Below, in pieces: positions 1-64,000 of a stretch of 64,000 nt of DNA; positions within the stretch are counted from its first letter, which is position 1; the number at the start of each line of letters is the position of its first letter. The position numbers and the translations under genes are program-made. The notes under the pieces were generated by a model. That model was not told the DNA's origin. It searched no databases and worked only from the letters and a program-made list of their open reading frames with translations. The stretch is from Truepera sp. (GTDB lineage: Bacteria > Deinococcota > Deinococci > Deinococcales > Trueperaceae). The stretch is from assembly GCA_965218435.1 (NCBI GenBank), contig CBDCKW010000009.1:1824001-1888000 (forward strand). Direction: 5' to 3'.

Positions 1-2
1 CA

Positions 3-422
3 GGCAATCCGCTCGGTAGGGGGCTTGGGAGTACCGGCGTAGCGAGCAGCCTTAGCGCCCAAAAAGCAACGTTACAAAATCTGGACAGCGGGATTATCGC
101 CGTGCTCTACTCGTTTGGTATTTTAGGAACGTTTTACTTTGTCGGCGGGGCCACAGCGATCTTTGGCGCGGTGCTCCGCCGGGGGTTTCGTACAGCTAAC
201 GTGGGAGACGCGAGTTACGTCGGTATCACGGTGGCGGCAATCTCGCAGCTGGCGTTCGGTAACGCGTGGGGCGGCGTTTCGGGGATGATCTTATGGGTGT
301 TTCCGTGTTTGTACCTAGCCTCGAGCTATCAGAGCAGCTTGGCACAAAACAGTTCAGTGCAGAGCAGCGCCAGCAGAGTGACCCCGGAACCCTTTGGGGG
401 CAGCACAGCCCATGACTTATAA
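3..422 (+). CDS. O-antigen polymerase/ligase-like membrane protein (5'-truncated by window edge)
   Basis: Frame is open from position 3: GNPLGRGLG...NLDSGIIAVLYSFGILG followed by hydrophobic helices, typical of the Wzy_C region; lies in a polysaccharide locus. Confidence 0.65.
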   Translation, partial: GNPLGRGLGSTGVASSLSAQKATLQNLDSGIIAVLYSFGILGTFYFVGGATAIFGAVLRRGFRTANVGDASYVGITVAAISQLAFGNAWGGVSGMILWVFPCLYLASSYQSSLAQNSSVQSSASRVTPEPFGGSTAHDL

Positions 423-1635
423 CGGTGCCAGCACACCCTCCGAGCAAGTCCTGAGCGAAGAAGTTCAGGTCATCGAACTAGGTACGGGCTGGTTTGCTGA
501 AAAACCGGGGGGTCTCGAGCGCGTCTTTTACGGGCTCCTTAAGTATCTCGGGGGGTTCAGGATTGAGGCTCGAGGCTTGGTCGTGGGTTCAGCTGAGATT
601 CAAACTCTCTCAGGGGGCCAGGTATACAGCTTCGCTCCCGCCAACGCGCCGCTGCCCGTCCGCTGGTTCCGCGTGCGGCGGGCGCTGCGCGACCTGCTTA
701 CGGAAAAATCTGCCGACCTCATCTCAGCGCATTTTGCGCTCTACGCGTTTCCAGTATTGGACATCATCGGCAAGCTGCCACTCGTCGTTCATTTTCACGG
801 GTCGTGGGCACTGGAAAGCGAAGTCGAGGCGTCATCTGGCTTCGTCTCGAGGCTTAGTGCGCGGCTCAAATGGCTGGTTGAGAAGCTCGTCTACCGCCGC
901 GCCGCACGGTTTATCGTCTTGTCGCAGGCGTTTAAGACGGTGTTACACGAAACCTACGGCGTCCCTAAAGAGCGTATTGACGTCATCCCCGGGGGGATTG
1001 ATACGGCGGCTTACGACACCGGCCTCAGTGTGAGGGAAGCCAGGGCCGCGCTCGAGTGGCCCGCAGAGCGCCGGATTCTTTTGACAGTTAGGCGACTCGT
1101 CAAACGGCAGGGACTGGAAAACCTTCTTACCGCTGTGGCCGAGCTGCGCACCAGACACCCGGACGTGCTCCTTTTTATCGGCGGAACCGGCCCCTTGACC
1201 GAGGCGTTAACAGCGCAGATCGAAATGCTGGGACTAGCCGAGCACGTCAAGTTGTTAGGGTTTATCCCTGATGATAAGCTTGCCCTGACCTACGCCGCCG
1301 CCGACCTTTCAGTCGTACCGACGGTGGCGCACGAGGGCTTTGGACTCATTACCGTTGAGTCACTCGCAGCAGGTACGCCGGTGCTTGTCACACCGGTCGG
1401 CGGCTTGCCCGAAGTCGTGGCAGGTCTAGCCCCTGAACTCATCCTCGGGGGCAGTGAGGTGCCTGATCTGGTCTCGGGGCTTGACGGCGCACTCTCCGGC
1501 ACCATGACACTGCCGAGCCGTGAGGAGTGTCAGCAGTACGCGCGAGTGGGGTTTGACTACCGTACGGTTGCCGAACGGACGGCGGCGGTCTACCGAGAGG
1601 TGCAGAAGGCTGCGCACCGTAAACGGCCGCGCTAG
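412..1635 (+). CDS. GT4 family glycosyltransferase
   Basis: GGLER N-terminal motif, VRRLVKRQG, EGFGLITVESLAAG (EX7E), PVGGLPEV; ATG at 412 preferred over the ORF start at 394. Confidence 0.9.
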   Translation: MTYNGASTPSEQVLSEEVQVIELGTGWFAEKPGGLERVFYGLLKYLGGFRIEARGLVVGSAEIQTLSGGQVYSFAPANAPLPVRWFRVRRALRDLLTEKSADLISAHFALYAFPVLDIIGKLPLVVHFHGSWALESEVEASSGFVSRLSARLKWLVEKLVYRRAARFIVLSQAFKTVLHETYGVPKERIDVIPGGIDTAAYDTGLSVREARAALEWPAERRILLTVRRLVKRQGLENLLTAVAELRTRHPDVLLFIGGTGPLTEALTAQIEMLGLAEHVKLLGFIPDDKLALTYAAADLSVVPTVAHEGFGLITVESLAAGTPVLVTPVGGLPEVVAGLAPELILGGSEVPDLVSGLDGALSGTMTLPSREECQQYARVGFDYRTVAERTAAVYREVQKAAHRKRPR

Positions 1636-1642
1636 TTGAGTT

Positions 1643-2743
1643 TTACGATTTTTTGAGATTAGCTTCCGCTACCAGCTCTGCCCTTAGAGAGTCTCGAGTG
1701 TCAGACGCGCCGAGTTCTGCCAGGGTTAAAATCCTTACTCTTCCGCCTACTCCGCTGCGGAAGTGCTCGTAGACGTCCTCGACAAAATCGTGGTACCGAA
1801 GCAAATGTTGGGGTTCTAGATAAACCGAGGCGAATTGCAACGTGTCGCCAAACATCGTGACGCAGTTTTGTATCGCCGAGGTGATAAACGAGACGATTTC
1901 CTGGGGCCGCTCCGCCGCTGCACTGAGGACAATCTCGACAGGCAGGCCATAATGCCGCACCTCAAAGCCGAGTGCCTGCTCGAGTTCACGCACATCCTCT
2001 TCCCGCTCACGGCTATGCGGTAAGTACACGAGCGGCTGATCCCCGTAAAAATGTTTGACTTGCTTTAGGTACGCAAAATACGTCTCGTTGGTAACGTAAC
2101 CGTCAAACGTCAAAGGCTGGCCTAAAAACCATACCTCATTTCCTCTAGACGCGTCGGCGATACGTGAGCGGAAATTTTGATAGCGGTTAAGAATCAGCCG
2201 GTCTCCCTCCCAAACGGCAATATCGTAGGCGGAGAAAAAGGTCACGCGCTCGGATATCCGATACCTGATACCTAGTAGAAACATAGATGCTTTTTCTTTT
2301 GCTGACAAAGGGCGAAGCGTGACGAGTCCATTACGCACTTTATTGACGAACAGCGTGTCGGTTCCGTCGTCGAGCAAGTAGAGCGTCCCATGCGGGAGCG
2401 TGTTGGCGATATGGCGCTGAATAGGCTCTTGATAGTGGCCCATAAACAGCCCTTCAGCGTGACCGAAAGACGCCAGCAGATTATCTACCTTTCGCCGCAG
2501 CAACCAGCGCAGGTAAAACCACTGCAGCTTGCCAAACTCTTTAACATCGCCGTTGTTGTTGGCCGAAAGACGATAAACGGCGCTCCACTCGTTTTCTTTA
2601 ATCAGAGGTTCGTAGACAGACATTGGCCAAAAAAGGCTGTTTACACGAACTATGACAAGTACATTGTCAGCTGTGCGCAAAAACTCTTTGGCTTCTACGG
2701 CGTTGATGAGCTGCAGGGGTGAAAACACGAAGAAGACGTTCAT
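1643..2743 (-). CDS. Putative nonulosonic acid (sialyl-like) transferase, polysialyltransferase/GT52-like
   Basis: SPLQLIN N-terminus, DDG motif, FLGQPL, PHSRE (HP-like motif) and TSA, resembling bacterial sialyltransferase motifs; divergent from neuA/neuB-like genes. Confidence 0.6.
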   Translation of the reverse strand: MNVFFVFSPLQLINAVEAKEFLRTADNVLVIVRVNSLFWPMSVYEPLIKENEWSAVYRLSANNNGDVKEFGKLQWFYLRWLLRRKVDNLLASFGHAEGLFMGHYQEPIQRHIANTLPHGTLYLLDDGTDTLFVNKVRNGLVTLRPLSAKEKASMFLLGIRYRISERVTFFSAYDIAVWEGDRLILNRYQNFRSRIADASRGNEVWFLGQPLTFDGYVTNETYFAYLKQVKHFYGDQPLVYLPHSREREEDVRELEQALGFEVRHYGLPVEIVLSAAAERPQEIVSFITSAIQNCVTMFGDTLQFASVYLEPQHLLRYHDFVEDVYEHFRSGVGGRVRILTLAELGASDTRDSLRAELVAEANLKKS

Positions 2744-3124
2744 GTATACCGTCTAAACGTAGTTTGGCGGCTTGTGACGCTAGGCGCTAGGGCGTAAAAA
2801 AGTTTCCAAAACCCCGGCAATAGGGCTCGAGTCCCTAAATCCGCCGAGCATATCAGCGTCAGTTGCCTAAACATAGCTAAGCGTATCCCTTTTTTACCAA
2901 GCATAACAGCGAAATACCTCACCGGATTCTAACTTTTAGAGGCGCAGCGAAAGTGTTCCGAAACGCTCTACCCCGTTCTGCGCTCGCCTTAAATCGGCAC
3001 TCTGAACCGCCGCGTAGTGAAACTCTACCTAAACGTTTTTGTGTAGATAGAGTAGATTGACCTATGACCCGGCCCATAAAGGCCAACGAACTTGATTTGA
3101 GTCGAGGAGGCTACCGCCAAGCTG

Positions 3125-3886
3125 ATGAATGGCCCTTTTACAACGTCTAAATCAACGTCTATCCCTGAGTCTACAAAGTCAAAGCCGTCCGGCCCAGCCC
3201 CCGGAGCCGTCGCCGTGATTCCTGCTCGGGGCGGGTCTAAACGTATCCCGCGCAAAAATATCCGCGAGTTGGGGAGTCGTCCGCTACTCGCCTATACGGT
3301 TAGCGCCGCGTTGGACAGCAGGCTTTTTGAACGTGTCATCGTCAGTACGGACGACGACGCTATCGCTACGGTGGCCCAGGAACAGGGCGCAGAAGTCTTG
3401 ACACGCGCCGCTGAGCTGAGTGATGACCACACGCCCACGTCGCTGGTCACGCTGGAGGTCGTTGAACAGCTTGAGCTAGAGGACGCGCAGCACGTCGCGC
3501 AGCTGCTACCCAACTGTCCACTACGAACCGACGCCGACGTGCGCTCGAGCTACGCCCAATTTGTGCAAGGCGAATGTGAAGCGCAGCTTTCGGTAACCCG
3601 TTACGGCTGGCTCAACCCGTGGTGGGCGCTGACGATGGACACGCAGGGGCCGACGCACCACCTGAAACCGGTTTTTGAAGCGCAGCTTCGGGCGCGGAGT
3701 CAAGACCTGCCGACGCTCTACTGCCCCACCGGGGCGATCTGGTGGACGACAGCGGCGTCTTTACGGCGTGAAAAGACTTTTTATACCGCGCGGCGTACCG
3801 GCTGGGAACTACCGTGGCAACGCGCGGTAGATATTGACGACGAAGACGACTGGCAGCTCGCCGAGCTCTTGCTGGCACGCTCATGA
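3125..3886 (+). CDS. neuA: Acylneuraminate (nonulosonate) cytidylyltransferase, NeuA/LegF family
   Basis: IPARGGSKRIPRKNI, VSTDD, CPLR, DIDDEDDW motifs. Confidence 0.9.
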   Translation: MNGPFTTSKSTSIPESTKSKPSGPAPGAVAVIPARGGSKRIPRKNIRELGSRPLLAYTVSAALDSRLFERVIVSTDDDAIATVAQEQGAEVLTRAAELSDDHTPTSLVTLEVVEQLELEDAQHVAQLLPNCPLRTDADVRSSYAQFVQGECEAQLSVTRYGWLNPWWALTMDTQGPTHHLKPVFEAQLRARSQDLPTLYCPTGAIWWTTAASLRREKTFYTARRTGWELPWQRAVDIDDEDDWQLAELLLARS

Positions 3887-3896
3887 AGACGATCCC

Positions 3897-4781
3897 ATGA
3901 AAACCGCGCTTTATACAACTGTTCATCCGGCCTCGAGGCCCTACTTGAACACTTTTCTCTCGAGCGTTACGGCACAGACGGACACCGATTTTGATCTTTG
4001 GCTTGGGATTGACGTAGCGCCTGAGGCGTTAGGAAGCGCCTCAGGTTTATTGGAAAACGCAACCTTCGTCGTCGCCGAACCGGGCGACACCCCCGCGAGC
4101 CTGAGAGGGCGGGCGTGGGCGCAGCTTGTCAACCTTTACGACGCCGTGATCTTCGTAGACAGTGACGACGTGTTGTATCCGGAGCGCGTGGCGGCGGCGA
4201 AAAAACAGCTCGAGGTGAGTGACATGGGCGGCTGTGCGCTGGACTTGATAGCCGAGAACGGTGCACCCCTTGGCGTAACGTTGCAAGCGCCACCAGAGCA
4301 CGACTGGGCCGAGCTGTTGCCACGATGTAACGTGTTCGGCCTGTCAAATACGGCCTACCGCTGTGAAGCGTTGGCCAAAACGCTGCCGCTACCTAAAGAG
4401 GTCGCGGTAGTTGACTGGCTCGTCGTCACACGGGCCTACCTCGCGGGTGCCCGGTTGGGATTTGACACAGCGCCCAGAATGGCCTACCGGCAGTATGAGA
4501 GCAACACCGCCCAGGTTCTCCCGCCGTTTACGCCGGAGGGCATTATGCGGGCGACGGCGCACGTGCTTACGCACCTACAGTACGTGTTGCAAGAGCCCAT
4601 AAGTAAAGAGAGCTTCAAAACAAGCCTCGAGCAACGTTTTGCCGAGGTGCGGAAATTTTCTGAGCGGATACGAGGAGACTTACTTACGACCTACACGCGA
4701 GAACTAAACGCTCGCACGCAGCCCGTTTACCTCTGGTGGGCGTGCGTGGCGCATAAGGAGCTGGCTTATCTATGGAGCTAA
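3897..4781 (+). CDS. GT-A fold (GT2-like) protein
   Basis: AQTDTDFDL, IFVDSDD (DxD), FGLSNT, VDWL, YRQY; ATG at 3897. Confidence 0.6.
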   Translation: MKTALYTTVHPASRPYLNTFLSSVTAQTDTDFDLWLGIDVAPEALGSASGLLENATFVVAEPGDTPASLRGRAWAQLVNLYDAVIFVDSDDVLYPERVAAAKKQLEVSDMGGCALDLIAENGAPLGVTLQAPPEHDWAELLPRCNVFGLSNTAYRCEALAKTLPLPKEVAVVDWLVVTRAYLAGARLGFDTAPRMAYRQYESNTAQVLPPFTPEGIMRATAHVLTHLQYVLQEPISKESFKTSLEQRFAEVRKFSERIRGDLLTTYTRELNARTQPVYLWWACVAHKELAYLWS

Positions 4782-4782
4782 T

Positions 4783-5835
4783 ATGAACCTACTTAACCTT
4801 TCAGGCCGCCCGGTCGGGCCGGGGCACTCACCTTACATCATCGCTGAAATCGGCGCGAACCATAACGGCGATATGGCGCTCTGCAAGAAGATGATTGACG
4901 AGGCGCAGCGGTGCGGCGCGGACGCCGTCAAGTTTCAGTCGTGGTCGGCAACCTCGCTGATCTCTAAGGCTGAATACGAACGCAACGCCAGCTACAGCGA
5001 CCCGGAACGGCACTTCGGCTCGCTTAAAGAGATGGTCGAACGCTATCAGCTAACGGCGGCGCAGCACCGTGAGGTTGCAGCTTACTGTCAAACCAAAAAG
5101 ATTGACTTCATGTCAACGCCTTTTTCGCCCGAAGAGGTTGACCTGCTGGTTGAACTGGGCGTCCCGGCGCTCAAGGTCGCTTCGATGGACGTGAACCATA
5201 CGGTGCTGCTCGAGCATATCGCCAAAACCGGCAAACCGGTCATCTTGTCAACCGGGATGGCGAGCTTGGCCGAGGTTGCCGAAGCCGTAGGCACCTTAAA
5301 AACCTATAACGCCGGACCGCTGGCGCTGCTGCACTGCATCTCGATTTATCCACCCGACTACGAAGATATCCATCTGCGCAATATCCCCATGTTGCAGGCC
5401 GCGTTTGACGTCCCGGTGGGGTTTAGCGACCACAGCTTCGGCGTGGCGATTCCGCTCGCGGCAGTGGCGCTCGGCGCGTGTATTATCGAAAAGCACTTTA
5501 CGCTAGACAAACAGATGCAGGGTTGGGATCACCTCATCTCGGCTGACCCGCCTGAACTGACGACGATCTGCCGTGAGGCCAAACACATCTTTACGGCGCT
5601 CGGTCACCCTCACCGCACCGTCAGCCCCGACGAGCTGGAAAAACGCAAAAAGTTTCGCCGCTGCATCGTGCTGGCGCGTGATGTAGACGCCGGTCACGTC
5701 CTGAGCGAAGCCGACCTCGACTACAAACGTCCGGGTACCGGTATCTCTCCGAACGCGTATCCTTACGTCGTCGGGCGCAGCGTCGTCAGAGCGCTGGGGA
5801 GCGACCATGAACTCCGCTGGACCGACCTCGCTTAA
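4783..5835 (+). CDS. neuB: Nonulosonate synthase, NeuB/LegI family with C-terminal SAF domain
   Basis: IIAEIGANHNG, DAVKFQ, STPF, KVAS, LSTGM, LHC, GFSDHS, IEKHFTLD, KRPGTG. Confidence 0.95.
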   Translation: MNLLNLSGRPVGPGHSPYIIAEIGANHNGDMALCKKMIDEAQRCGADAVKFQSWSATSLISKAEYERNASYSDPERHFGSLKEMVERYQLTAAQHREVAAYCQTKKIDFMSTPFSPEEVDLLVELGVPALKVASMDVNHTVLLEHIAKTGKPVILSTGMASLAEVAEAVGTLKTYNAGPLALLHCISIYPPDYEDIHLRNIPMLQAAFDVPVGFSDHSFGVAIPLAAVALGACIIEKHFTLDKQMQGWDHLISADPPELTTICREAKHIFTALGHPHRTVSPDELEKRKKFRRCIVLARDVDAGHVLSEADLDYKRPGTGISPNAYPYVVGRSVVRALGSDHELRWTDLA

Positions 5836-5838
5836 GCA

Positions 5839-6492
5839 GTGGGAAAGACCGGCACACCCCTTATCGTGCTGGGCGCAGGCGGACACGCCCGCGTACTGAT
5901 TGACGCACTGCGGTTACAGCAACGCGAACCCATCGGGGTGACCGACCCCGACGCGTCACTTTGGGGCAGCACCGTTTTAGGTGTGCCGGTACTCGGTGAC
6001 GACGACCGGATACAAGGCTTCGCCCCGAACGAGGTCATGTTGGTCAATGCGCTTGGGAGCACCAGGGGCACCGCCTTACGGCAGGCCGTCTGGGAGCGGT
6101 GGTGTGGGCGCGGCTACCGGTTCGTCGGCGTTGTTCATCCTGCCGCCGTCGTCGCGCAGTCTGCGGAGCTCGAGGCCGACGTGCAGGTGTTGGCCGGAAG
6201 CGTCGTCGGGGCCGCAGCTCACATCGGCCACAACAGCATCGTCAACACCGGGGTCATCGTCGAACACGACTGCCGCGTCGGGCAGCACGTCCATCTTGCG
6301 CCCGGCGTCACCTTGTCGGGCAACGTCACGGTTGGGGACGGGAGCCATTTGGGAACGGGGTGCACCGTTATTCAAGACACCAACATCGGTGAGGGATGCG
6401 TCGTGGGCGCGGGCGCGGTGGTGGTGCGCGACTTGGAGCCCTTTACTTTGGCCGTCGGGGTACCTGCGCGGGCCGTTAAGACGTTGAGATAA
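5839..6492 (+). CDS. Sugar acetyltransferase, NeuD/PglD family (hexapeptide repeat)
   Basis: GAGGHA, VHPAA, IVEHDC, VGAGAVV, GVPAR. Confidence 0.9.
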   Translation: MGKTGTPLIVLGAGGHARVLIDALRLQQREPIGVTDPDASLWGSTVLGVPVLGDDDRIQGFAPNEVMLVNALGSTRGTALRQAVWERWCGRGYRFVGVVHPAAVVAQSAELEADVQVLAGSVVGAAAHIGHNSIVNTGVIVEHDCRVGQHVHLAPGVTLSGNVTVGDGSHLGTGCTVIQDTNIGEGCVVGAGAVVVRDLEPFTLAVGVPARAVKTLR

Positions 6493-6537
6493 CACCTTAG
6501 ATCGTCATACTTTTAGACATAACTCAGGAGAACCTAC

Positions 6538-7887
6538 GTGTCCAAGAATCTTTACATCGTCCACGCCATAGATACCGAAGGGCCACTTTACGAATCGCTG
6601 CCGGCAACTTTTGAACGCTTGGAGAAGATCACCGGGGTGAGGCTCGAGCCAACCCAGGAAAACCTCGAGCGGGTGCGTCACCGTCAGCTCGACTTAGGCG
6701 GACGCGAAGAGGTGGCGAGTCTGGCGGCCTCTAAAGAGCTGCTCACCTACAACGACACTTGGGACAAAGTTGACGCGATGCTCAAAGAGATGCTGAGCCC
6801 CGAGTACCGGCAGCGTTACGCCGACCCGCAGGGCGGCGGCTGGGTGTACAGCTGGTTTTTGATGGACCACGTAGGCTACACCGTCAACCCCCGGCGGCGC
6901 GACCTGGGCTACCATAATATCTTCGACCACTACCGGACGCTCCTGCACGAGACCGGTTCGCCCGACGATGTGCAGTGGCACTTTCACCCGATGTCGCGGT
7001 ATAGGGAGGCGCACATCGTCGCCACCTCGTACCTGGGTTCGCCGCACCTGCTCGAGTCGCTCGCACGGCGGATCATTGACCGCACCTGGTTTCCGAGCGC
7101 CTTTCGCCCCGGCTTTCACGCTGAGCGGCCCGACGCACACTGGTTTTTAGAACAGTGGCTGCCCTTCGACTTTGCCAATCAGTCGTTGCCGGGAGAGGAC
7201 CGGCTCGAGCAGCAAGCGGACGTGGCCGGGGGCAGACTCGGCGACTGGCGGCGAGCCCCCTCGGACTGGTCGCCGTACCGTCCGGCGCACGACGACTATC
7301 AAGTGCCGGGAGCGTGCCGCCGGACGATCTTTCGCTGCCTCAACGTCGGGACACGGTTTCGGCTGTTGGACCAGCTCGAGGTCAGACGCGCCTTTGCTCG
7401 CGCTAACGAGGGTTTACCGACGATTTTAGCCTTTACCAACCACGACTTTCGGGATATGCGCCGCGACGTGGCGCAGGTTTACGCTGACGTAACCGAGGTC
7501 AGCCGGGAGTTTCCCGAGGTCACCTGGCAGCACAGTCGGGCGCAAGACGCAGCGCGGGCCGTCCTCGGTTTGGAAGAGCTGACGCCCCTGCGCTTAGACG
7601 TTACGCTGTCGCCGCGGGGCGACAGCCTTCACCTCGAGGTCAATGCCAACGTAGACACCTTCGGCCCGCAACCTTTTTTAGCGGTTAAAACGTGGGATAA
7701 ACGCTACCTCACCGACAACTTCGACCTGCAAATTCCTAAACGGCGGTGGACTTACGTTTTTGACCAAGACACCATCTTACCCGCTTCGGTTGAAGCTATC
7801 GGGGTCGCGTCAAACGGCATGGACGGCAGACCGCACACGGTAGTGATCAAACCGAGCGGTGAAAAGATCGCGGAGACCGGTGGCTGA
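6538..7887 (+). CDS. Hypothetical protein, possible polysaccharide-deacetylase-like (NodB/WalW-like) fold
   Basis: 449-aa ORF with RBS AGGAG; IDTEGP, WHFHP and FRPG motifs resemble CE4-like metal and Arg motifs. Confidence 0.5.
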   Translation: MSKNLYIVHAIDTEGPLYESLPATFERLEKITGVRLEPTQENLERVRHRQLDLGGREEVASLAASKELLTYNDTWDKVDAMLKEMLSPEYRQRYADPQGGGWVYSWFLMDHVGYTVNPRRRDLGYHNIFDHYRTLLHETGSPDDVQWHFHPMSRYREAHIVATSYLGSPHLLESLARRIIDRTWFPSAFRPGFHAERPDAHWFLEQWLPFDFANQSLPGEDRLEQQADVAGGRLGDWRRAPSDWSPYRPAHDDYQVPGACRRTIFRCLNVGTRFRLLDQLEVRRAFARANEGLPTILAFTNHDFRDMRRDVAQVYADVTEVSREFPEVTWQHSRAQDAARAVLGLEELTPLRLDVTLSPRGDSLHLEVNANVDTFGPQPFLAVKTWDKRYLTDNFDLQIPKRRWTYVFDQDTILPASVEAIGVASNGMDGRPHTVVIKPSGEKIAETGG

Positions 7888-10414: not shown

Positions 10415-10424
10415 CCTAAAACCT

Positions 10425-51235: not shown

Positions 51236-51246
51236 CGGCTTGCTCT

Positions 51247-55104: not shown

Positions 55105-55138
55105 TTATTGGGCAGGTCTGGTTATTGGACAGGTCTGG
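55105..55138. repeat. 17-bp tandem duplication
   Basis: TTATTGGGCAGGTCTGG followed by TTATTGGACAGGTCTGG. Confidence 0.8.
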
Positions 55139-55233
55139 CACAGGCTTGCCGAAAACTTCACACGCTCTCTAACCGGCCTATGTGAGTGCATTTTAAGGTT
55201 AGGTTAAGGTTCGTCTCGGTATAGTAAAGCATT

Positions 55234-56568
55234 ATGTCACGACGTTATTTCGGCACCGACGGTATCAGGGGGGTTGCAGGAGCCCCACCGATGACCGCAG
55301 AGTTCGCTTTTTCGGTCGGTGTCGCCGCGGCTGAAGCCCTTAAAGGGGCGGGCCGTGACGCGCCTACGGTCTTGATCGGACGCGATACCCGCCGTTCCGG
55401 GCAGATGCTCATGTCGGCGCTCGTGGCAGGGCTGACCTCGAGGGGTGCCTTTGCTGTTGAACTCGGCGTTTTGCCGACTCCCGGTGTCTCACACCTCTGC
55501 CGCTCGCTCGGCGCAGCTGCGGGTATCGTCATCAGCGCGTCGCACAACCCGTTTGCCGACAACGGCATCAAGTTTTTTAGCGCCGACGGCGAAAAGCTCT
55601 CGGACGCGCTCGAGGCTGAGATCGAAAGCTACCTGGGGCGTGTTGCGACTCTACCTGCTGTCACCGGCGCGGCCATCGGCACGTTTGAACGCTACGACCG
55701 CAGCAGCAGCCACGAATACCGCGACTTTTTGATCGCCAGCGGCCCCGACCTGAGCGGCCTTAAGATCGGTTTAGACTGCGCCAACGGCGCAGCGTACAAA
55801 CTCGCCCCCGAAGTTTTTTCGCTACTCGGGGCCGACGTGCGGGTGATCAACGCCGAACCCGACGGGCTCAATATCAATACCGGCTGCGGCTCAACGCATC
55901 CCGAAGCTATCGCACACTTTGTTCAAACCGAGGGCTTAGACCTCGGCGTCACCTTCGACGGCGACGCCGACCGTGCGCTCCTCGTAGACCGCGCGGGGCG
56001 GCTGATTTCAGGCGACCACATGCTCGCGATCTGTGCGCTCTACCGCCACGAACAAGCCGTCGTCTCGACCATTATGGGGAACTTGGGCCTCGAGCACTAC
56101 CTGACCGCACGCGGTGTGGGCTTTTACCGCGCCGCCGTCGGTGACCGCTACGTTTACGAGATGCTCCGTACCAAAGGCTTGTCTTTAGGCGGTGAACAGT
56201 CCGGACACGTGCTCTTTTTAGACAAAGCGCCGACCGGCGACGGCATTTTGAGCGCCTTACAAACGCTCGCTGCGGTGCAGGGTTCAGGAAAAATGCTCGA
56301 GACTTGGTTTGACGAAATCACCATGTACCCGCAAATCCTGCTTAACGTCCGAGTTGACCCGCTCGTAAAAGCGCGGCTCGCCGAACATCAGCAAGTAGCT
56401 GTAGCTCTGCAAGAAGCCTCAGCGCGCCTCAACGGTGAGGGCCGCGTCAACGTTCGGCCGTCAGGCACCGAGCCGCTCGTCCGGGTGATGGTTGAAGGGC
56501 GCGACCAAAGTACGATCGAGCAGGTTGCTAGAGATATTGCGGCTGTGGTCGAACGGGCGAGACTCTAA
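55234..56568 (+). CDS. glmM: Phosphoglucosamine mutase
   Basis: FGTDGIRG, ISASHNP, DGDADR, GGEQSGH, RPSGTEP. Confidence 0.95.
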   Translation: MSRRYFGTDGIRGVAGAPPMTAEFAFSVGVAAAEALKGAGRDAPTVLIGRDTRRSGQMLMSALVAGLTSRGAFAVELGVLPTPGVSHLCRSLGAAAGIVISASHNPFADNGIKFFSADGEKLSDALEAEIESYLGRVATLPAVTGAAIGTFERYDRSSSHEYRDFLIASGPDLSGLKIGLDCANGAAYKLAPEVFSLLGADVRVINAEPDGLNINTGCGSTHPEAIAHFVQTEGLDLGVTFDGDADRALLVDRAGRLISGDHMLAICALYRHEQAVVSTIMGNLGLEHYLTARGVGFYRAAVGDRYVYEMLRTKGLSLGGEQSGHVLFLDKAPTGDGILSALQTLAAVQGSGKMLETWFDEITMYPQILLNVRVDPLVKARLAEHQQVAVALQEASARLNGEGRVNVRPSGTEPLVRVMVEGRDQSTIEQVARDIAAVVERARL

Positions 56569-56760
56569 GCCGGCTTGTTCAAGCGTTCTGGTAGACGTCC
56601 ACTAAATTTTTAGGTGTCATTCTGAAATGCAGCGGCTTTTGCGGTCACTGAGCCGGGTTCTCGCTTAGACAATTTTGGCTTTGTTAAGGGCAGCATTTCA
56701 AAATGTGCGTATCAAACTATGCTTCATTTACTTGAGCTGGCTCAAACCAAATCATACCTT

Positions 56761-57228
56761 CTATAATTTGGTAAAAGGCAGAGGTTTTAGCTCGAGAACC
56801 ACCTGACCCCCATAGACAAACGCCATGTGGAGCGTGTCACCCGACCAGCGCAGCTCAGGCAGCGGTAAATCCCGAAGAACCGCGTCACTCGTCGGCCAAG
56901 GATCGGTCGTCCTTTCAGCGATCACGTCTTGCACTGTGCTCATGATCTGATAGGCGATATGGGCCAGATCTTCTTTTTCCGTCTCTGAGGCGTAGTGCAG
57001 GTTGATACCCTGCCCCGCTTCAGCTTGACCGTCAAACGACACGCCGACTACCGCACCGTCAAGCTCGAGGCTAAACACAGGGGGCGTAACCAGGTTAAGC
57101 TGTTGTACCAGCCAAGAGGCCAGTTCAACCACTTTGGGGGAAGGTCTACCGGTTCGGGCGAAGGGTAACTGAAGCGTCGGGTAGAGTAGTTCATGATTGA
57201 TATTACCCGCGCCTTGACCTCTGGGCAC
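56761..57228 (-). CDS. Hypothetical protein (start uncertain)
   Basis: 155-codon ORF filling the gap; the full ORF overlaps the kynB start, so the real start is probably downstream. Confidence 0.45.
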   Translation of the reverse strand: MPRGQGAGNINHELLYPTLQLPFARTGRPSPKVVELASWLVQQLNLVTPPVFSLELDGAVVGVSFDGQAEAGQGINLHYASETEKEDLAHIAYQIMSTVQDVIAERTTDPWPTSDAVLRDLPLPELRWSGDTLHMAFVYGGQVVLELKPLPFTKL

Positions 57229-57789
57229 CCCAACTGGCCCGGTGACACCCCTCTAACCGTAAAGCTTACCGCCGACATCACTCAAGGTTCAGCGGTCAAC
57301 ATTATGAAGCTCTCAACCTCGACGCACTGTGGCACCCACCTCGACGCGCCGTTTCATTACAGCCAAGGCGGGGGGCGGTTGGGAAGCGTGGCGCTCGAGC
57401 TGCTGATCGGTCCGGCACGAATCATTGACGCACGCAGCAGTGTGACCCCCGAACTGTTAGCGCCCTTTGACCAGCTACCTGAACGCGTCCTCTTTTATAC
57501 CGGCGAACCCGCTCATTGGGACGTGTTTCCCAACTTCACGCCGCTCACGCCTGAGCTGATTTACGCCCTCGCTGACCGGGGTGTGAAACTCGTCGGCACC
57601 GACGCACCGAGTGTAGATACCCTGACGAGTAAAGATTTGCCCGCGCATAAGGCTTGTTTGGAACGTGGTGTGCTGATCCTCGAGGGTCTCAACTTGGTCA
57701 ATGTTCCCGAGGGCAAGTACGAACTTATCTGCTTACCGCTCAACCTCCCCGACGCCGACGCGTCGCCGGTCAGGGCCATCCTCCGGTGA
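57193..57789 (+). CDS. kynB: Kynurenine formamidase (cyclase family)
   Basis: WPGD, HCGTHLDAPFH, GTDAPSVD, ILEGL, DASPVRA; adjacent to kynU. Confidence 0.88.
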   Translation: MIDITRALTSGHPNWPGDTPLTVKLTADITQGSAVNIMKLSTSTHCGTHLDAPFHYSQGGGRLGSVALELLIGPARIIDARSSVTPELLAPFDQLPERVLFYTGEPAHWDVFPNFTPLTPELIYALADRGVKLVGTDAPSVDTLTSKDLPAHKACLERGVLILEGLNLVNVPEGKYELICLPLNLPDADASPVRAILR

Positions 57790-58967
57790 AACGGGACGCG
57801 TTCTTACTGCCGCGCGGTATCTACTTAGACGGCAACTCGCTCGGCCCGCTCTCTTACGGGGCGCAAGCTGCGACTGAGCGCCGCTTAAAGCAGTGGCAGC
57901 ACTTGGCGGTGAGCGGCTGGGACGAGTGGTTTGAACTTGCGGAGCGCCTCTCCCCGGCGCTTGCTCGGCTCGTCGGGGCGAAACCTACAGAGGTCATCGC
58001 CACGGGCAGCATCACGAGTAACCTGCACGCGCTTTTAGCGACGTTTTACGAGCCCCAAGGCGAACGCCGCAACCTGCTGGCGACCAGCCTCGACTTTCCC
58101 AGCGACCTCTACGCGCTTTCGGCGTGGGCCGAGCGGCAGGGCGGCGAGCTCAAGCTCATCCCCTCGAGAGACGGGCATACCCTTCACGAAAACGATATTC
58201 AGGGTGCGCTGACGACGGACATCGCCGTCGCCGTATTACCAACGGTGCTCTACCGGAGCGGACAACTCTTAGACGTTACAAGTATCACCGCGCAGGCGCA
58301 CGCTGCAGGTGCGCTGATCGGCTGGGACGCGGCGCATAGTATTGGCGCGGTGCCGCACAGCTTTCACGACGCCGGAGTGGACTTTGCCGTGTGGTGTTCG
58401 TATAAATATCTCAACGCGGGACCGGGTGCGCCGGGTGGCTTATTCGTGCATGAGCGGCACTTTGAGCGTACTCCGGGATTGCCGGGGTGGTGGGGCCACG
58501 ACAAAGCGACGCAGTTTGAAATGGCCGCAGCGTTTCGCAAAGCGGTCGGCGCAGGCGCGTATCAGCTTGGCACGCCGAGCATCATCGCGCTCGCGGGGCT
58601 CGAGGGCGCTCTCGGCGTGTTCGAAGAGGTCAGTATCGGGGCGGTGCGCACACGCTCATTAGAGCTGACCGAATACCTTATCGTCCTCGCGGACGCGCAG
58701 CTGCCGGAACTCACGTTGCGGACGCCCCGGAACCCGGAAAAGCGGGGCGGCCACCTCGTTTTAGAACACCCTCACGCGCAGAGCCTGAGCCTTGCGCTCC
58801 GGGAACGTCAGATCGTTCCCGATTACCGCGCTCCCAACTTGCTCCGGCTCGCCCCGGTCGCGCTTTATAACACTGAAGCTGAGCTAGACGAAACGGTGCG
58901 TGTACTGCGAGAGCTGTTAGATAGGAGAAGTTATGTAAAAGAGATTCCGGCAGGCCCTGTTACTTAG
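57786..58967 (+). CDS. kynU: Kynureninase
   Basis: YLDGNSLG, FPSDLY, WDAAHS, WCSYKYLNAGPG, GWWGH; GTG overlaps the kynB stop. Confidence 0.93.
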   Translation: MKRDAFLLPRGIYLDGNSLGPLSYGAQAATERRLKQWQHLAVSGWDEWFELAERLSPALARLVGAKPTEVIATGSITSNLHALLATFYEPQGERRNLLATSLDFPSDLYALSAWAERQGGELKLIPSRDGHTLHENDIQGALTTDIAVAVLPTVLYRSGQLLDVTSITAQAHAAGALIGWDAAHSIGAVPHSFHDAGVDFAVWCSYKYLNAGPGAPGGLFVHERHFERTPGLPGWWGHDKATQFEMAAAFRKAVGAGAYQLGTPSIIALAGLEGALGVFEEVSIGAVRTRSLELTEYLIVLADAQLPELTLRTPRNPEKRGGHLVLEHPHAQSLSLALRERQIVPDYRAPNLLRLAPVALYNTEAELDETVRVLRELLDRRSYVKEIPAGPVT

Positions 58968-59030
58968 GCTCGAGTCGCCTTGTCTACACGCTTGATATTT
59001 GTCTACATACTTGTCTGCACATACGTTTAG

Positions 59031-59453
59031 CTACCGCGCCGGACAGACCACGCTCATCTCGGTGCCCCAGCGGTACGCCTCGCTGCAGGTAACCCAGGCG
59101 CGTTTAATTGAAATGGTACTAAGCACGTTGGCGTCGCCCGGGACCTTTAAGGTAGCGATGACGCCCTGCCCGCGCGGTCCCCAAAGCGTGACAGTTTGCG
59201 GGTAGGTGCCGCGAAACGCCTCAGCGTCTTTGGGCAAGGTAGTCTCGTCCCCCGTAAGCGCCGCGTAGCGCCCCTGAAAGGTGGCTCCGGCAGGCCCGTC
59301 GAAGTGAACGTAGTACGGAATCGGCCCCCCAAACTCGTAGTAAAGGCCCGCAACCACGAGGAGTGTAAACAGCAAGATTAAGATGCGGGTAAGCGGAACT
59401 TCGGGTGCCCGGACGCGTTGACTTTTCCCTTGACCTTGAACTTCTCTAACCAC
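59031..59453 (-). CDS. Membrane-anchored hypothetical protein
   Basis: Single TM segment followed by a soluble domain with two Cys. Confidence 0.5.
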   Translation of the reverse strand: MVREVQGQGKSQRVRAPEVPLTRILILLFTLLVVAGLYYEFGGPIPYYVHFDGPAGATFQGRYAALTGDETTLPKDAEAFRGTYPQTVTLWGPRGQGVIATLKVPGDANVLSTISIKRAWVTCSEAYRWGTEMSVVCPAR

Positions 59454-59596
59454 AGTAGCTCCTAACGGTATCCAGCTGAGCCCGAGAGCGCAGCGTAACG
59501 CTCCAGTTTACGGCGCTCACGCACAAAGATAAAGCGCGGTGAACTACACCGCGCCCTTTTTGCCTGCTGGGTTTAGACACATAGGTCTCGGACGAG

Positions 59597-60229
59597 CTAG
59601 CCGCGCAGGTGCTTAACGCCCGCTGCAACTTTGGCAACGCGGACACCGAGTTTACGGGCCATACTGAGTTCATCTTCTGAAGGTTGCCTCGAGCCGTCGC
59701 CACCGGCGAGCGTCCCAGGGCCGTAAGGCGAGCCGCCATGCACGCTAAGCGCAAAGAGTTCCGGGTTCTGACTGTAGGGCGACCCGACGAAGATCATCCC
59801 TTGGTGCAGCATCGGCACGAGCGCGGTCAGCACGGTTGACTCTTGGCCACCCCCGAGCGTCGCCGTCCCGACAAAGATACCCGTCACCTTATCGGTCAGC
59901 TCACCGTTCGCCCACAGGCCCCCGGTCGTGTCAATAAACGCCTTCATCTGCGCGGCCATGTTGCCGTAACGTGTCGGGGTGCCCCAGATGATGCCGTCGG
60001 CCCAGCGGAGGTCGTCGTGAGTTACCTCGTCGTGCTCAGCCATCGCCTGTTGCGCCTGAACATAGGCGTCTTGGCCTGACATCGCCTGACGCGCCGCCTC
60101 GAGTTCAGGAATACGCACAACTTTGACCTCGGTGTCGTCTACACTTTTGGCACCTTCGGCGACTGAATGCGCCATCTTATGGAGGTGACCATATGAACTG
60201 TAAAACGGAATCAGGATATGGGTAGGCAT
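59597..60229 (-). CDS. wrbA: NAD(P)H:quinone oxidoreductase, WrbA family
   Basis: YSSYGH, GTPTRYGNM, GGQEST, GGSPYG. Confidence 0.93.
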   Translation of the reverse strand: MPTHILIPFYSSYGHLHKMAHSVAEGAKSVDDTEVKVVRIPELEAARQAMSGQDAYVQAQQAMAEHDEVTHDDLRWADGIIWGTPTRYGNMAAQMKAFIDTTGGLWANGELTDKVTGIFVGTATLGGGQESTVLTALVPMLHQGMIFVGSPYSQNPELFALSVHGGSPYGPGTLAGGDGSRQPSEDELSMARKLGVRVAKVAAGVKHLRG

Positions 60230-60326
60230 AGTGTCTCCTTTGGAATACTTGTGTGGGGTTTGCGAGCTTGTAACGTAAACTCAGCACGCGACCTTGCGGG
60301 CAAGGCGTTACCCGGCAACGTGTTAA

Positions 60327-60355
60327 AGCGTATGCGGAGTGCTATATTTTGTCAA
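60327..60355 (-). promoter_or_regulatory. Sigma70-like promoter of wrbA
   Basis: TTGACA-N17-TACGCT on the minus strand. Confidence 0.55.
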
Positions 60356-60450
60356 GTAGTTTGTAATACATAGTTGCAGCTTGGGTAAGCTGTTTATTAT
60401 TTTATAAGTTTTTAGGGATTACAAAGCACGGAGGCCGCAGGGAAGGTTAC

Positions 60451-60792
60451 GTGGAGGTTACGGAGGAGCATACAGTGGAACATAACTTTTGTCCGATCTA
60501 CGAGTCAATCAATCTGCTGCAAGAGAAGTGGACGCTGCATATCGTGCGCTCGCTCTTAGGCGGCCCCAAAGGGTTTAACGAACTCGGCCGCGACATCGGC
60601 GGCTGCAACCCGACCACCTTGGCGCAACGTTTAGAACGGCTCGAGGCTGCCGGAATCATCCATAAAAGTGTGCAGTCCACCATGCCGCCACGGACCCGCT
60701 ACACCCTGACCGAAGCAGGACTCGCGTTAGAAGACGTGATCGGCGCAGTAGACCGTTGGGGGCGGCAGTTTCTGACTCAGACTGTTCCTTAA
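60451..60792 (+). CDS. HxlR/DUF24 family winged-helix regulator
   Basis: N-terminal CP, KWTLHIV, FNEL, TLAQRLERLE, PPRTRYTLT; divergent from wrbA; start may be GTG at 60475. Confidence 0.9.
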   Translation: MEVTEEHTVEHNFCPIYESINLLQEKWTLHIVRSLLGGPKGFNELGRDIGGCNPTTLAQRLERLEAAGIIHKSVQSTMPPRTRYTLTEAGLALEDVIGAVDRWGRQFLTQTVP

Positions 60793-60820
60793 GAGGTCAA
60801 AGTACTAGACATAAAGTGCT

Positions 60821-61069
60821 ATGAAATTTTTCACACCGCTGCTAGACTTACGCTATCTTAGTCGGGCTCCGCCCTGGTTTGGGGAGATAATGCGTCACAA
60901 TACCGTTTGGCTTTTTGTCGTTTTAGCACTTTTACTCACGGCCTTTTGCCTCGGATTACCCCAATTTCACTACGCCGTCGCGCTGATGATCGCCCTTATC
61001 TTACGGTACAAAGACCAACCCTATAACGAACCGCTTTTCAAATTTAGCTTTTCGCCGAGGCGCAGTTAG
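60821..61069 (+). CDS. Small membrane protein
   Basis: Two hydrophobic segments; start uncertain. Confidence 0.4.
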   Translation: MKFFTPLLDLRYLSRAPPWFGEIMRHNTVWLFVVLALLLTAFCLGLPQFHYAVALMIALILRYKDQPYNEPLFKFSFSPRRS

Positions 61070-61424
61070 AAGCTGTTCGGGTGCTGAGTTCCGCTGATCT
61101 TTCGGTTGAGCCGTGACGACTTCTACCGCCTTGCAGGTAAGTAGTCAGGGGTTAGAAGTCAGTAGTCCATCAGCCTTCTGCGCAGGTAACGTCGGTCTCG
61201 CGGTTGCGTGAGGGTCTTAAAAGCAACTGTCAACATGGCCTAGAGCCGACCGAGAGCGTCCACAACATAGCTGATATAAGTTAAGAGTTCAGAATAAAGA
61301 AGTTAGGTGTTTGGGCGTCTCTTACACCTTCAAGACGTGACCACAAGGGTAGACGACAACTGAAACCCCAAAACGCTTCACACGACGGCCACGCCGGTGC
61401 AGGGTGTTTTTACGCTCTGCTTTT

Positions 61425-61700
61425 TTAACGTACCGGGGGTCGTTTGCGTTTGTCGGCGTTGTTGCTTTTGTAAAAAAGCTCGGCGAGCTCGAGGTTGAGC
61501 TTGACCAGTTCCGCGTCCCGCAAACGGTGGTCCAACTGCTCTTTGCACGCGCCGACGCGCTCACTGAGCCCAGCGTTGGGTTTTGCCGGTGACGCTATGA
61601 TGAGGCGGTGCTCGAGACGCTCAATCAACTCCTTAGCCGCGTCTCGGTGTTTTTCACGTTGCAGTTTATTTAGTTTCATAAACGCCAGTTTCATAAGCAC
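61425..61700 (-). CDS. Small hypothetical helical protein
   Basis: 91-codon ORF in an otherwise empty gap; no family recognised. Confidence 0.4.
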   Translation of the reverse strand: MLMKLAFMKLNKLQREKHRDAAKELIERLEHRLIIASPAKPNAGLSERVGACKEQLDHRLRDAELVKLNLELAELFYKSNNADKRKRPPVR

Positions 61701-61835
61701 TCAGTCTCATAGACACCCCCGTAAAGATAGCCCTACGCACTTCGGGTAACGTTTCAGCTGAACAACTTGCGATTAGAAGCTACCCGCTGAAAAGCCTAGC
61801 ACGCTGCATGAGCGTGTAAAGCAGCCCGAACTTCA

Positions 61836-63230
61836 TCAAGTTTTAACCAACGAGGGCTCTGCAACTTGGGCTCTAAGGGCTGCTAACTGTAACCGCCGAA
61901 ACCGCCCGACCAAAAGGAAGGCAGCCGTCATCAAACCGAGGACAAGCCCCAACCACAAACCCCGACCGCCGAGCCCCAGCACAAAAGCAAAGAGAACACC
62001 CGAACTAAGGCCGACGCCCCAATACGAAGTCAGTGAAATCAGCATCGGCGCACGCGTATCTTTAAGACCGCGAAGCGCCCCGGCTGCGCTCACCTGCAGC
62101 CCGTCAAACACCTGAAACACAGCCGCAAACGCTAAAAACTGCGCCGCTCTGCGGACAACTGCCGTGTTCGCCGGGTCGGTAACATCGAGGTAAAGCCCGA
62201 CGACCTGATCGGGTAAAAACCAGAAGGTCAAGGCGCTAACGAGCATGACACAGGCGCTTAACAAGATACCGACCCAGCCCGCACGCTGAACCCCAACAGG
62301 GTCACGCCTGCCGACGGCTTGCCCGACCCGGACAGCAGTCGCCGACGCCAACCCGAGCGGCACCATAAAGGTAAAACTCGCGCTCTGAATGGCAATTTGG
62401 TGCGCCGCGAGTGGCACCGTGCCGAGCGTCCCTATCAAGACCGCCGTCGCGGAAAAAAGACCCGCCTCAAACCCGAGTGTCAGGCCAATCGGCCAGCCGA
62501 TACGGAGGAGGTCGACAAGCATGTTAAGGTCAACACCGCGAAACCGAAAGAGTCCAAATTGGGGCAGGGTGCGGGCACTATGCAGCGCCAGCAACCCGAA
62601 ACTAAGCCCGAACGAAAGGGCGCTGGCGTACCCTGTGCCAACCAAGCCAAGTGCCGGAAAACCCCAGTTGCCAAACATCAGCAAGTAGTTCATCAGCGCG
62701 TTGAAGCCGACCGCCAAAAACGCAATGACCATCACCGGACGCGGGTTTGAAATCCCTTCGAAAAGGCCACGCAAACCGACCGTCAGGAGGGCCGGAACAA
62801 CCCCCCAGGCAATCGCCTGCACGTACCCGGTCGCCAGCCGCACCGTTTCGGGCTCTTGACCCAGGAGCGGCAAGATATGGCCGATCTGCGAAAACAACAC
62901 GAGGGCCGGCACACTGAGGAGCAGCGCCAAGAAAAAACCCTGCTGCGCGGCCCTGCCCGCCGCCGCCGTCTCCCCTGCCCCGAACGCCTGCGAAACGGTC
63001 GGGCCGACCGAAAAAAGCACACCACTGCAAACCAAAACAGTCAAAAAAAAGATGCTGCCGCCGAGTGCGATACCCGCAAGCTGCGTATTACCGAGACGCC
63101 CGACCATCAGCGTGTCCACAAACGACGCCGACATCTGCGCGACTTGCGCCAAAATGAGCGGCAGAGCCAGCGTGAGCGTGCGGCGCACCTCGAGCCTCAG
63201 AGAAGGTTTTAGCACAGGTGCCGCGTCCAT
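61836..63230 (-). CDS. MATE family efflux transporter (NorM-like)
   Basis: VDTLMVGRLG, GWPIG, AAHQIA, RVGQAVG, FQVFDGLQ...GALRGLKDT. Confidence 0.93.
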   Translation of the reverse strand: MDAAPVLKPSLRLEVRRTLTLALPLILAQVAQMSASFVDTLMVGRLGNTQLAGIALGGSIFFLTVLVCSGVLFSVGPTVSQAFGAGETAAAGRAAQQGFFLALLLSVPALVLFSQIGHILPLLGQEPETVRLATGYVQAIAWGVVPALLTVGLRGLFEGISNPRPVMVIAFLAVGFNALMNYLLMFGNWGFPALGLVGTGYASALSFGLSFGLLALHSARTLPQFGLFRFRGVDLNMLVDLLRIGWPIGLTLGFEAGLFSATAVLIGTLGTVPLAAHQIAIQSASFTFMVPLGLASATAVRVGQAVGRRDPVGVQRAGWVGILLSACVMLVSALTFWFLPDQVVGLYLDVTDPANTAVVRRAAQFLAFAAVFQVFDGLQVSAAGALRGLKDTRAPMLISLTSYWGVGLSSGVLFAFVLGLGGRGLWLGLVLGLMTAAFLLVGRFRRLQLAALRAQVAEPSLVKT

Positions 63231-63291
63231 AGAGGGTGACTATACCCGGAGAAGATCAGACTTCAACCCTTTTAGCCAACGCGAAAATGCG

Positions 63292-63594
63292 TCAGCCTAG
63301 TTTTTCTTTAATAGCTGCCAACATGTTCAGGTTAGGCGGAAAAATGGGTTCAGGCAGCGCGTCAAGAGCAAAGTAGCGTAGCTCGAGACCCGTCTCCTCA
63401 AAAACTTCGCGTCGCGCAGCCTCTTCAACCGTTTCGCCCAAGTTCATGATGCCGCCCACGACACCCCAGGTGCCATCGTCTGAACGGCGCTGCAAAAGCA
63501 GACGGCCTGAGCTGTCTCTGATCAGGATGACCGCAGCGACGAAAATGGCCGGTTTGTTGCCGATCATCCCCCGGAGATAACGGATATAGTCCAT
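63292..63594 (-). pseudogene. NUDIX hydrolase with an apparent in-frame internal deletion
   Basis: Intact Nudix box GETVEEAARREVFEETG joined directly to LELRYF; about 49 aa present in the upstream paralogue are missing. Confidence 0.7.
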
Positions 63595-63597
63595 AGC

Positions 63598-63999
63598 TCA
63601 ATCTTGGCGTACAGATCGCTTTTTGATAGCCTCGAGAATAGGCAGATTCGGTTCAAAAAGATTCTCCGGAAAGGCGTTAAGCGGAAAGTAACGGAGCTCG
63701 AGCCCCTCCGCGTCGGGTTGCAGCGTGCCGTTTGTGCTGTCTGTCAAAAACGTGATGGTGATAATTTGGGCTTCATCACCGTTTGGGTAGGTATAGAAAA
63801 GTCCAATATCTTCAAAAACGCCGAACAGCTCCAAGTTACCTACAGTCAAGCCTGTCTCTTCCAAAACTTCACGCCTGGCCGCCGCTTCGAGGCTTTCGCC
63901 TAACTCCATAAAGCCGCCGATCAGACCCCAGCCAGTTCCGTCAGCACGGTGTTGCAAAAGCAGTTCACCGGCTCCGTTAAAGATTACGACGCCCGCTGT
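63598..63999 (-). CDS. NUDIX hydrolase (5' end beyond window edge)
   Basis: LLLQHRAD, GGFMELGESLEAAARREVLEETG, YPNGD. Confidence 0.88.
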   Translation of the reverse strand, partial: TAGVVIFNGAGELLLQHRADGTGWGLIGGFMELGESLEAAARREVLEETGLTVGNLELFGVFEDIGLFYTYPNGDEAQIITITFLTDSTNGTLQPDAEGLELRYFPLNAFPENLFEPNLPILEAIKKRSVRQD

Positions 64000-64000
64000 A

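Follow-up and report, generated by a model that had tools for sequence, protein, structure and literature searches.

The palindromic hexamer CTCGAG was found to be strongly over-represented in a 64-kb stretch of DNA (the window) and throughout the genome of the Trueperaceae bacterium (Deinococcota) from which it derives, designated G000 (4.81 Mb, nine contigs). In its behaviour the word is like the highly iterated palindrome 1 (HIP1) of cyanobacteria, yet it is not HIP1, the core of which, CGATCG, is depleted in G000 with an observed-to-expected ratio (O/E) of 0.21. The window contains 141 CTCGAG sites, while 20.3 +/- 5.0 were expected from 100 dinucleotide shuffles, none of which reached 141. 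A first-pass annotation had put these numbers at about 140 and about 20, in good agreement with the counts, and the GC content of the window at about 59%, which is corrected here to 57.7%. In G000, CTCGAG is the commonest hexamer (9,883 copies), 6.1-fold over a first-order and 5.2-fold over a second-order Markov model, and most other six-base palindromes are depleted. On the small contigs C6 and C8 it reaches 5.2 and 3.2 sites per kb versus 2.1 for the chromosome. In each of them a long stretch is directly duplicated (7.9 kb and about 10 kb), and both are probably over-assembled circular plasmids.

Position, specificity and conservation of CTCGAG

According to our own gene calls, 104 sites of the window encode Leu-Glu, 19 are read as x-Ser-Ser/Arg, nine as x-Arg-x, and nine lie outside called genes. 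The occurrence of sites beyond the Leu-Glu frame, reported in the first-pass annotation, is thereby upheld; the five intergenic sites it named are all among the nine, and the tandem pair it noted is real. The sites are arranged as follows:

320..63702, unstranded: 141 CTCGAG palindromes dispersed at one per 454 bp (20.3 expected)
25655..25846, unstranded: three intergenic CTCGAG sites (25655, 25817 and 25841)
38240..38245, unstranded: intergenic CTCGAG site
47716..47727, unstranded: tandem CTCGAGCTCGAG (sites at 47716 and 47722)
58969..58974, unstranded: intergenic CTCGAG site

For the whole genome, genes were predicted with a home-made dicodon caller (4,904 genes, 83% coding). The excess persists after codon-preserving shuffling, with 8,550 coding sites compared to about 2,459 in ten synonymous-codon shuffles. 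In frames 0, 1 and 2, 6,677, 521 and 1,352 sites were found versus 2,119, 85 and 255 after shuffling within genes, which corresponds to an excess of 3.2-, 6.1- and 5.3-fold. It persists likewise in intergenic DNA (1,332 versus 227 under a second-order Markov model; 8.4-fold with sites masked). Neither of the two outcomes that the first-pass annotation had named as a refutation was therefore observed.

The nine one-off words examined in G000 average 0.93 of expectation with sites masked (range 0.69-1.43), TTCGAG and CTTGAG being at 0.7. Since these words are at background, recognition of CTCGAG looks all-or-none. Coverage of the chromosome is even, at 191-246 sites per 100 kb; the coefficient of variation of the gaps is 0.95 versus 1.03-1.19 for control words, and the densest 500-bp segment of G000 contains seven sites. 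Density is lower near the EF-Tu clusters (21-22 per 16 kb versus about 34), and the single 16S and 23S stretches detected contain none and one, respectively. Sites repel one another weakly within about 250 bp. When another site lies within 30 bp, 41% of Leu-Glu pairs have the spelling CTCGAG; at 250-500 bp the share is 61% (n=9,363, z=9), a steady trend not seen with any of nine control dicodons. The pair correlation is 0.86-0.94 at 15-250 bp, control words being mostly at 1.0-1.2. This short-range repulsion was absent from a sample of genus g26. Periodicity is marginal, with a single peak at 10.6 kb (power 10.4 versus an expected maximum of about 6.9). Gaps of exactly 21 bp occur 53 times on G000:C9, about twice as often as other multiples of three, and probably reflect heptad Leu-Glu repeats.

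The 7-mer extensions of CTCGAG show no strand skew (0.485-0.512 on the leading strand). A longer polar motif around the site was ruled out, 7- or 8-mer extensions being unskewed, and so was an origin cluster of the Nocardia type, none being present near the GC-skew minimum of G000. Another word, GGGGAGA, is skewed 311:109 toward the leading strand of G000:C9 and is likely a KOPS-like motif.

Turnover of sites was followed in orthologues of two relatives, 493 taken from 800 kb of genome G154 and 144 from 246 kb of G153; four-fold degenerate positions are 55% identical. Both genomes have CTCGAG at 643 of 790 conserved CTN-GAR pairs, and a one-off state is shared at only four. Retention of sites in frame 2 is 0.89 versus 0-0.59 for twelve controls, and in frame 1 it is 0.38 versus 0-0.19 for same-codon controls. 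Repeat copies within G000 with 80-90% identity share CTCGAG 58 times versus 17 one-off differences, while controls give ratios of 0.3-1.4; copies at 90-100% identity contain too few differences. In an eight-state rate model, gain was 6.7-fold and loss 0.07-fold relative to the control in a first fit, in which the control was poorly converged, and 14-fold (about 5-50) and 0.18-fold in a better-converged one. Overall, sites are gained about 4-14 times as fast as controls and lost at about 0.07-0.18 of the control rate. Models with gain only or loss only were worse in both fits, and symmetric selection equalled the free model in the first and was 8 log-likelihood units (lnL) worse in the second. 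CTCGAG is conserved between genomes beyond coding constraint, and its turnover is selection-like.

Distribution in Deinococcota and methyltransferases

Words were counted in 151 whole genomes of the order, and enrichment is expressed as a ratio, the CTCGAG count divided by the mean count of CTCGAC and GTCGAG. Because related genomes are not independent, the counts are presented as patterns, without statistical tests. The labels of the lineages are inferred: f1, Trueperaceae; f2, Deinococcus-like; g23, Thermus-like, within f4; f5, an uncultured family. Four of the five families show enrichment of CTCGAG; in the fifth, the Deinococcus-like one, it is depleted. Ratios are 9-54 in f5 (19/19 genomes), the densest family, 4.4-11.5 in f4 outside g23, with 159 in G126, and 0.02-0.45 in f2 (36/36). 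In f1, 14 of 37 genomes show 1.8-19 and the other 23 only 0.7-1.33; in f3, values of 1.1-2.1 were obtained for 21 of 23 genomes and 3.1 and 6.3 for two. Across 80 named loci, no palindrome is commoner than CTCGAG in most Trueperaceae and in uncultured Deinococcales (4-10 per kb); the word is rare in Deinococcus. The HIP-like behaviour postulated in the first-pass annotation is supported, the signal being genome-wide, frame-independent, conserved and lineage-wide. Other words are scarce in f5: GAGCTC is nearly absent from this family (e.g. L335-L354; 0-25 copies in 16/19 genomes), and GGCGCC, GTCGAC, ATCGAC, CTGCAG, CAGCTG and GAGCCC are nearly absent from a sample of the f5 genome G030.

The flanks of the site vary by lineage, GCTCGAGC being found in G000 and g22 and CCTCGAGG in g23. 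In all 22 Thermus-like genomes CTCGAC is nearly gone (5-63 copies) and CTCGAG is present 1,455-2,537 times, an excess that is only 1.3-2.9 relative to a second control word, CAGCTC. The sites occur mostly as CCTCGAGG (60 of 71 in one sample), the top octamer of this DNA at 8.9-fold (e.g. L378-L382), and other TCGA words are purged. In 40 kb of G094, 29 of 36 TCGA words are CTCGAG, 28 of them within the octamer. The same holds for 4/4 and 2/3 TCGA words of the phages IN93 and P23-77 and for 7/23 of P23-45. CTCGAG is enriched 6-fold in the Meiothermus phage MMP17 and 6.8-fold and 2.8-fold in plasmids of A. silvanus, the higher value being that of the megaplasmid.

Three unrelated, mostly solitary families of adenine methyltransferases accompany the word. 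Family A is represented in G000 by a solitary 560-aa gamma-class enzyme encoded among housekeeping genes (G000:C9:3672240-3673922). Family A genes are carried by 17 of 36 f1 relatives and by 7 of 10 g26 genomes; dnaG is a frequent neighbour, and no nuclease recurs next to them. Specificity for CTCGAG is putative, the enzyme aligning end to end with the PaeR7I-type enzyme at 23% identity. No solved relative was found, names of the sequence clusters are generic, and the unnamed neighbours of plasmid homologues (35-39%) gave no clue to specificity. Family B, 69% identical to paeR7IM, is present in the other three g26 genomes, so that A and B are complementary in this genus, and in four f1 genomes, G064 and G043; in G016 it precedes a frameshifted XhoI gene. 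Family C, the M.TaqI family, was detected in 22/22 g23 genomes, G126 and G008. Its position is the same in each of the 19 f4 loci fetched, and a TaqI nuclease lies alongside in 6/19. The enzyme of the Thermus-like genomes would presumably mark every TCGA. A nuclease of the XhoI type (PF04555) is present in 6/151 genomes and gave no match in G000, and in five f3 genomes an XhoI-family nuclease is accompanied by a beta-class methylase.

Within f1, f3 and f4, A, B or C is present in 49 of 51 genomes with a ratio of at least 2.2, a cut set after seeing the data. None of the 37 f1 and f3 genomes lacking them reaches this value, and B or C occurs in just two f3 genomes, which are also the only enriched ones of that family. 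Eight genomes with family A remain below the cut. The ratio changes with the control word: against CAGCTC, it exceeds 5 in G021 and G066. A shared methylase was not found in f5 (19 genomes searched for A, B and C, and 5-14 for Pfam families), nor in the enriched genus g32; D12 and MT-A70 families were not searched in either. Candidates for a shared f5 enzyme were rejected: Eco57I matches were type I, IIG or unshared, N6/N4 and C5 matches were not orthologous among the loci fetched, and an alpha-class m4C (N4-methylcytosine) family of three genomes was not found in five others. PF22837 gave no match in five f5 genomes, which is uninformative as the control was silent too. Vsr-type conversion was rejected, no Vsr being present in 5/5 genomes.

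By single-molecule real-time (SMRT) sequencing, M. ruber, M. chliarophilus and Marinithermus hydrothermalis were shown to carry N6-methyladenine (m6A) at 94-99.5% of their CTCGAG sites while having no cognate nuclease; of the five motifs listed for M. silvanus, none is CTCGAG (Blow et al. 2016, PMC4752239). The methyltransferase link suspected in the first-pass annotation holds as an association for the three enzyme families and these three species and fails in f5 and A. silvanus. For the orphan enzyme that it proposed, family A is the candidate in G000, and none was found in f5 or g32. Two further modification loci were noted in G000. A type III-like methylase gene upstream of a 1,078-aa gene is split in two frames (546 and 490 aa; G000:C9:3165815-3168971) by frameshift or phase variation, and a type I HsdM appears to be joined to a C-terminal part resembling HsdS (737 aa; G000:C9:990832-993045).

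Other features of the window lie outside the signal:

31657..43184, minus strand: LysW-type lysine operon, the homocitrate synthase of which served to assign the genome to Trueperaceae (Deinococcota)
11621..12498, plus strand: IS5-family transposase remnant, no CTCGAG site
38260..39069, minus strand: open reading frame (ORF) of 41.6% GC without Pfam or NCBIfam family, no CTCGAG site

The closest named relatives of the homocitrate synthase are from Trueperaceae/Truepera metagenome-assembled genomes (84-89%). The transposase remnant and the low-GC ORF are devoid of sites, as the first-pass annotation had stated, and both are too short to be informative. The remnant interrupts a legionaminic/neuraminic acid-type sugar biosynthesis cluster (NeuB, NeuD, LegB and cytidylyltransferase; 3125-11492), and a trehalase-like GH15 gene (15520-17281) is broken into two overlapping ORFs of 315 and 289 aa. 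An Rfam search of the window gave no match.

AddAB and competing explanations

G000 encodes addB (C9:3363359-3365677) and addA (C9:3359875-3362589), and a 258-aa metallophosphoesterase-like ORF is located between them (G000:C9:3362586-3363362). AddB homologues were detected in 35/36 f1, 21/23 f3, 35/36 f4 and 16/19 f5 relatives, 107/114 in total, versus 0/36 in the Deinococcus-like family. AddA is distributed similarly, with six weak f2 matches in addition. The sole f1 genome without addA and addB, G121 (96% complete), is unenriched (9 sites versus 6.8 in 30 kb). At the family level, addAB and CTCGAG enrichment co-occur. Deinococcus has been described as lacking addAB, and AddAB of T. thermophilus as acting strongly against incoming DNA (PMC9751324, PMC11143384), and deletion of addAB raised transformation about 100-fold with plasmid and 30-fold with linear DNA (PMC9751324).

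As CTCGAG is the one subset of TaqI sites retained in Thermus-like genomes and the flanks are lineage-specific, specificity seems to reside in a reader rather than in the methylase. We tentatively favour, as one possibility, that CTCGAG is a two-way (palindromic) Chi-like self signal which would stop the destruction of broken or incoming DNA by AddAB. In favour of this count, besides the addAB profile, the exactness of the word, its selection-like turnover and even coverage, the enrichment found without a detected methylase in f5, g32 and the A. silvanus megaplasmid, and the high density on the small contigs and in phage MMP17. A host protein would read CTCGAG; this putative reader would be AddAB, which may switch at the site from degradation to making a 3' tail. 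DNA richer in sites would survive entry and recombine more often, so that drive and selection would propagate the sites, on plasmids and phages too. The solitary methyltransferases (the 560-aa family A, the M.PaeR7I and the M.TaqI family) are likely retained as shields, because thousands of sites expose the genome to restriction of the XhoI or TaqI type. CTCGAG may be involved in repair or recombination, one of the options of the first-pass annotation. It appears rather doubtful that the proposal applies in its widest form. CTCGAG would then be the Chi of AddAB in Deinococcota and the first Chi to be palindromic; it would go back to the ancestor of the phylum, have disappeared together with addAB in Deinococcus, have withstood the genus-wide purging of TaqI sites in Thermus and have driven the domestication of three unrelated restriction methylases as shields.

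Several observations weigh against a Chi-like signal. AddAB is not sufficient, since 22 addAB-bearing Trueperaceae show ratios of 0.7-1.33 and 21/23 f3 genomes 1.1-2.1; inside these two families the association with methylases is tighter. Co-loss of addAB and the word comprises two events only, the Deinococcus-like family and G121. To our knowledge, characterised Chi sites are non-palindromic and strand-skewed (polar), unlike CTCGAG, which is palindromic and has unskewed extensions. One site per 150-500 bp seems far denser than end resection needs, and for AddAB tracts a spacing scale of 100-250 bp is short. In the rate fit that converged better, gain exceeds what symmetric selection permits (lnL -887 versus -895). 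Three Thermus phages are unenriched over base composition (7 versus 15.7, 2 versus 5.8 and 4 versus 6.7 expected), and Chi-binding residues of AddB could not be aligned to solved AddB.

The tight association with methylases would be expected if m6A-CTCGAG, produced by interchangeable solitary methyltransferases, were a methylation-dependent kin tag, read by a putative uptake or recombination factor and boosting transformation as in HIP1. The confinement of f3 enrichment to the genomes with B or C, the complementarity of A and B in g26, the similarity of family B to paeR7IM and its position beside a broken XhoI gene, the scarcity of TaqI nucleases at family C loci and the nuclease-free methylation in three Deinococcota all agree with it, and methylation of HIP1 lifts transformation more than 100-fold (Kamoku and Nielsen 2024, bioRxiv 2024.09.10.611283). 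This explanation is nevertheless somewhat unlikely, given f5 and g32, the lack of CTCGAG methylation in A. silvanus (PMC4752239), the eight family A genomes below a post hoc and control-dependent cut, and the 23% identity from which the specificity of family A is predicted. In a neutral ratchet (Elhai's model), methyl-directed mismatch repair would fix site-creating and remove site-destroying mutations of a functionless word. Gain in excess of symmetric selection, short-range saturation, which the model predicts (PMC4390886), and the values of TTCGAG and CTTGAG would fit. However, one-off neighbours as a class are not drained, their mean of 0.93 comparing with about 0.6 predicted by our own estimate for 14-fold conversion. 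With no Vsr in 5/5 genomes, no methylase found in f5 and only the CTCGAG subset of their methylase's sites kept by Thermus-like genomes, the chances of this model appear slim.

Uniform density, short-range repulsion and sparser surroundings of the EF-Tu clusters could also indicate a binding site for a nucleoid or chromosome-organising protein needing roughly even coverage, as put forward for HIP1 (PMC5861425). Such a function is improbable, as it is without a candidate protein, periodicity is marginal and the retention of sites in small phages is left unexplained. It is hardly conceivable that codon-pair or compositional bias without a dedicated reader is responsible. About two thirds of all G000 sites (68%) encode Leu-Glu, a fourth-order Markov model lowers O/E to 1.24, and the excess is near background in high-GC Trueperaceae. 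The fourth-order model is, however, inflated by the word itself, and bias is contradicted by the 8-fold intergenic and 5-6-fold off-frame excess and by an excess of up to 56-fold in f5-like loci. The Leu-Glu dipeptide is itself over-used, with an O/E of 1.25 in proteins of G000 and 1.9 in f5; in Deinococcus loci it is 0.89.

No published account of CTCGAG enrichment in Deinococcota was found by full-text searches of the literature, subscription journals and REBASE being beyond reach, and the accessible parts of PMC4390886 (Elhai 2015), PMC5861425 (Xu et al. 2018), bioRxiv 2024.09.10.611283, PMC13756078 (Rodriguez-Cruz et al. 2026) and PMC7448439 do not mention it. New here are the pattern in Thermus, three methylase families that stand in for one another, the rates of gain and loss and the addAB profile. 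As far as the accessible literature extends, the function of highly iterated palindromes has been a thirty-year puzzle, described from cyanobacteria alone. The second, independent case reaches Thermus thermophilus, for which addAB mutants exist, and makes the question testable by transformation. Should CTCGAG prove to be a Chi or an uptake signal, it would supply a component so far missing from DNA repair and gene exchange in a phylum famous for both, and genetic tools for Thermus, Meiothermus and Truepera could profit from added sites.

Comparison with known systems

DNA uptake sequences of Neisseriaceae and Pasteurellaceae occur at about 1-6 per kb, bend protein sequence and could spread by drive. 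CTCGAG is like them in all three respects, including the density of about 1-6 per kb, and unlike them in having six bases, in being palindromic, in lacking an excess of single mismatches (0.93) and in having no known receptor. With Chi of RecBCD/AddAB it has in common that a short, exact word is over-represented in AddAB-encoding genomes and absent where addAB was lost. It differs in being palindromic, unskewed and denser, and Chi action at CTCGAG is putative; the Thermus AddAB papers mention Chi only generically in their accessible parts (PMC9751324, PMC11143384). An active restriction-modification system of the XhoI type does not account for the word in G000, which has no cognate nuclease (PF04555). 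CTCGAG clusters at the origin of Nocardia consist of the same word and are connected with a solitary methylase, but there the modification is 5-methylcytosine, Vsr is a partner and the cluster lies beside dnaA (PMC4752239), whereas here the word is genome-wide, without Vsr and without a cluster at the GC-skew minimum.

HIP1 proper (GCGATCGC, of cyanobacteria) is a different word, and the host of CTCGAG belongs to another phylum, Deinococcota. CTCGAG comprises 6 bp plus lineage-specific flanks (GCTCGAGC in G000, CCTCGAGG in Thermus-like genomes), is accompanied by adenine methylases of three unrelated families, has unenriched one-off words, lacks a clear kilobase periodicity and has an O/E of about 8 here versus 15-300 reported for HIP1. 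Yet like HIP1 and the alternate HIPs, it is a palindrome dispersed genome-wide in genes and between them and conserved beyond coding need, and it is associated with solitary candidate methyltransferases, with exceptions in which no methylase was found (PMC4390886, PMC5861425).

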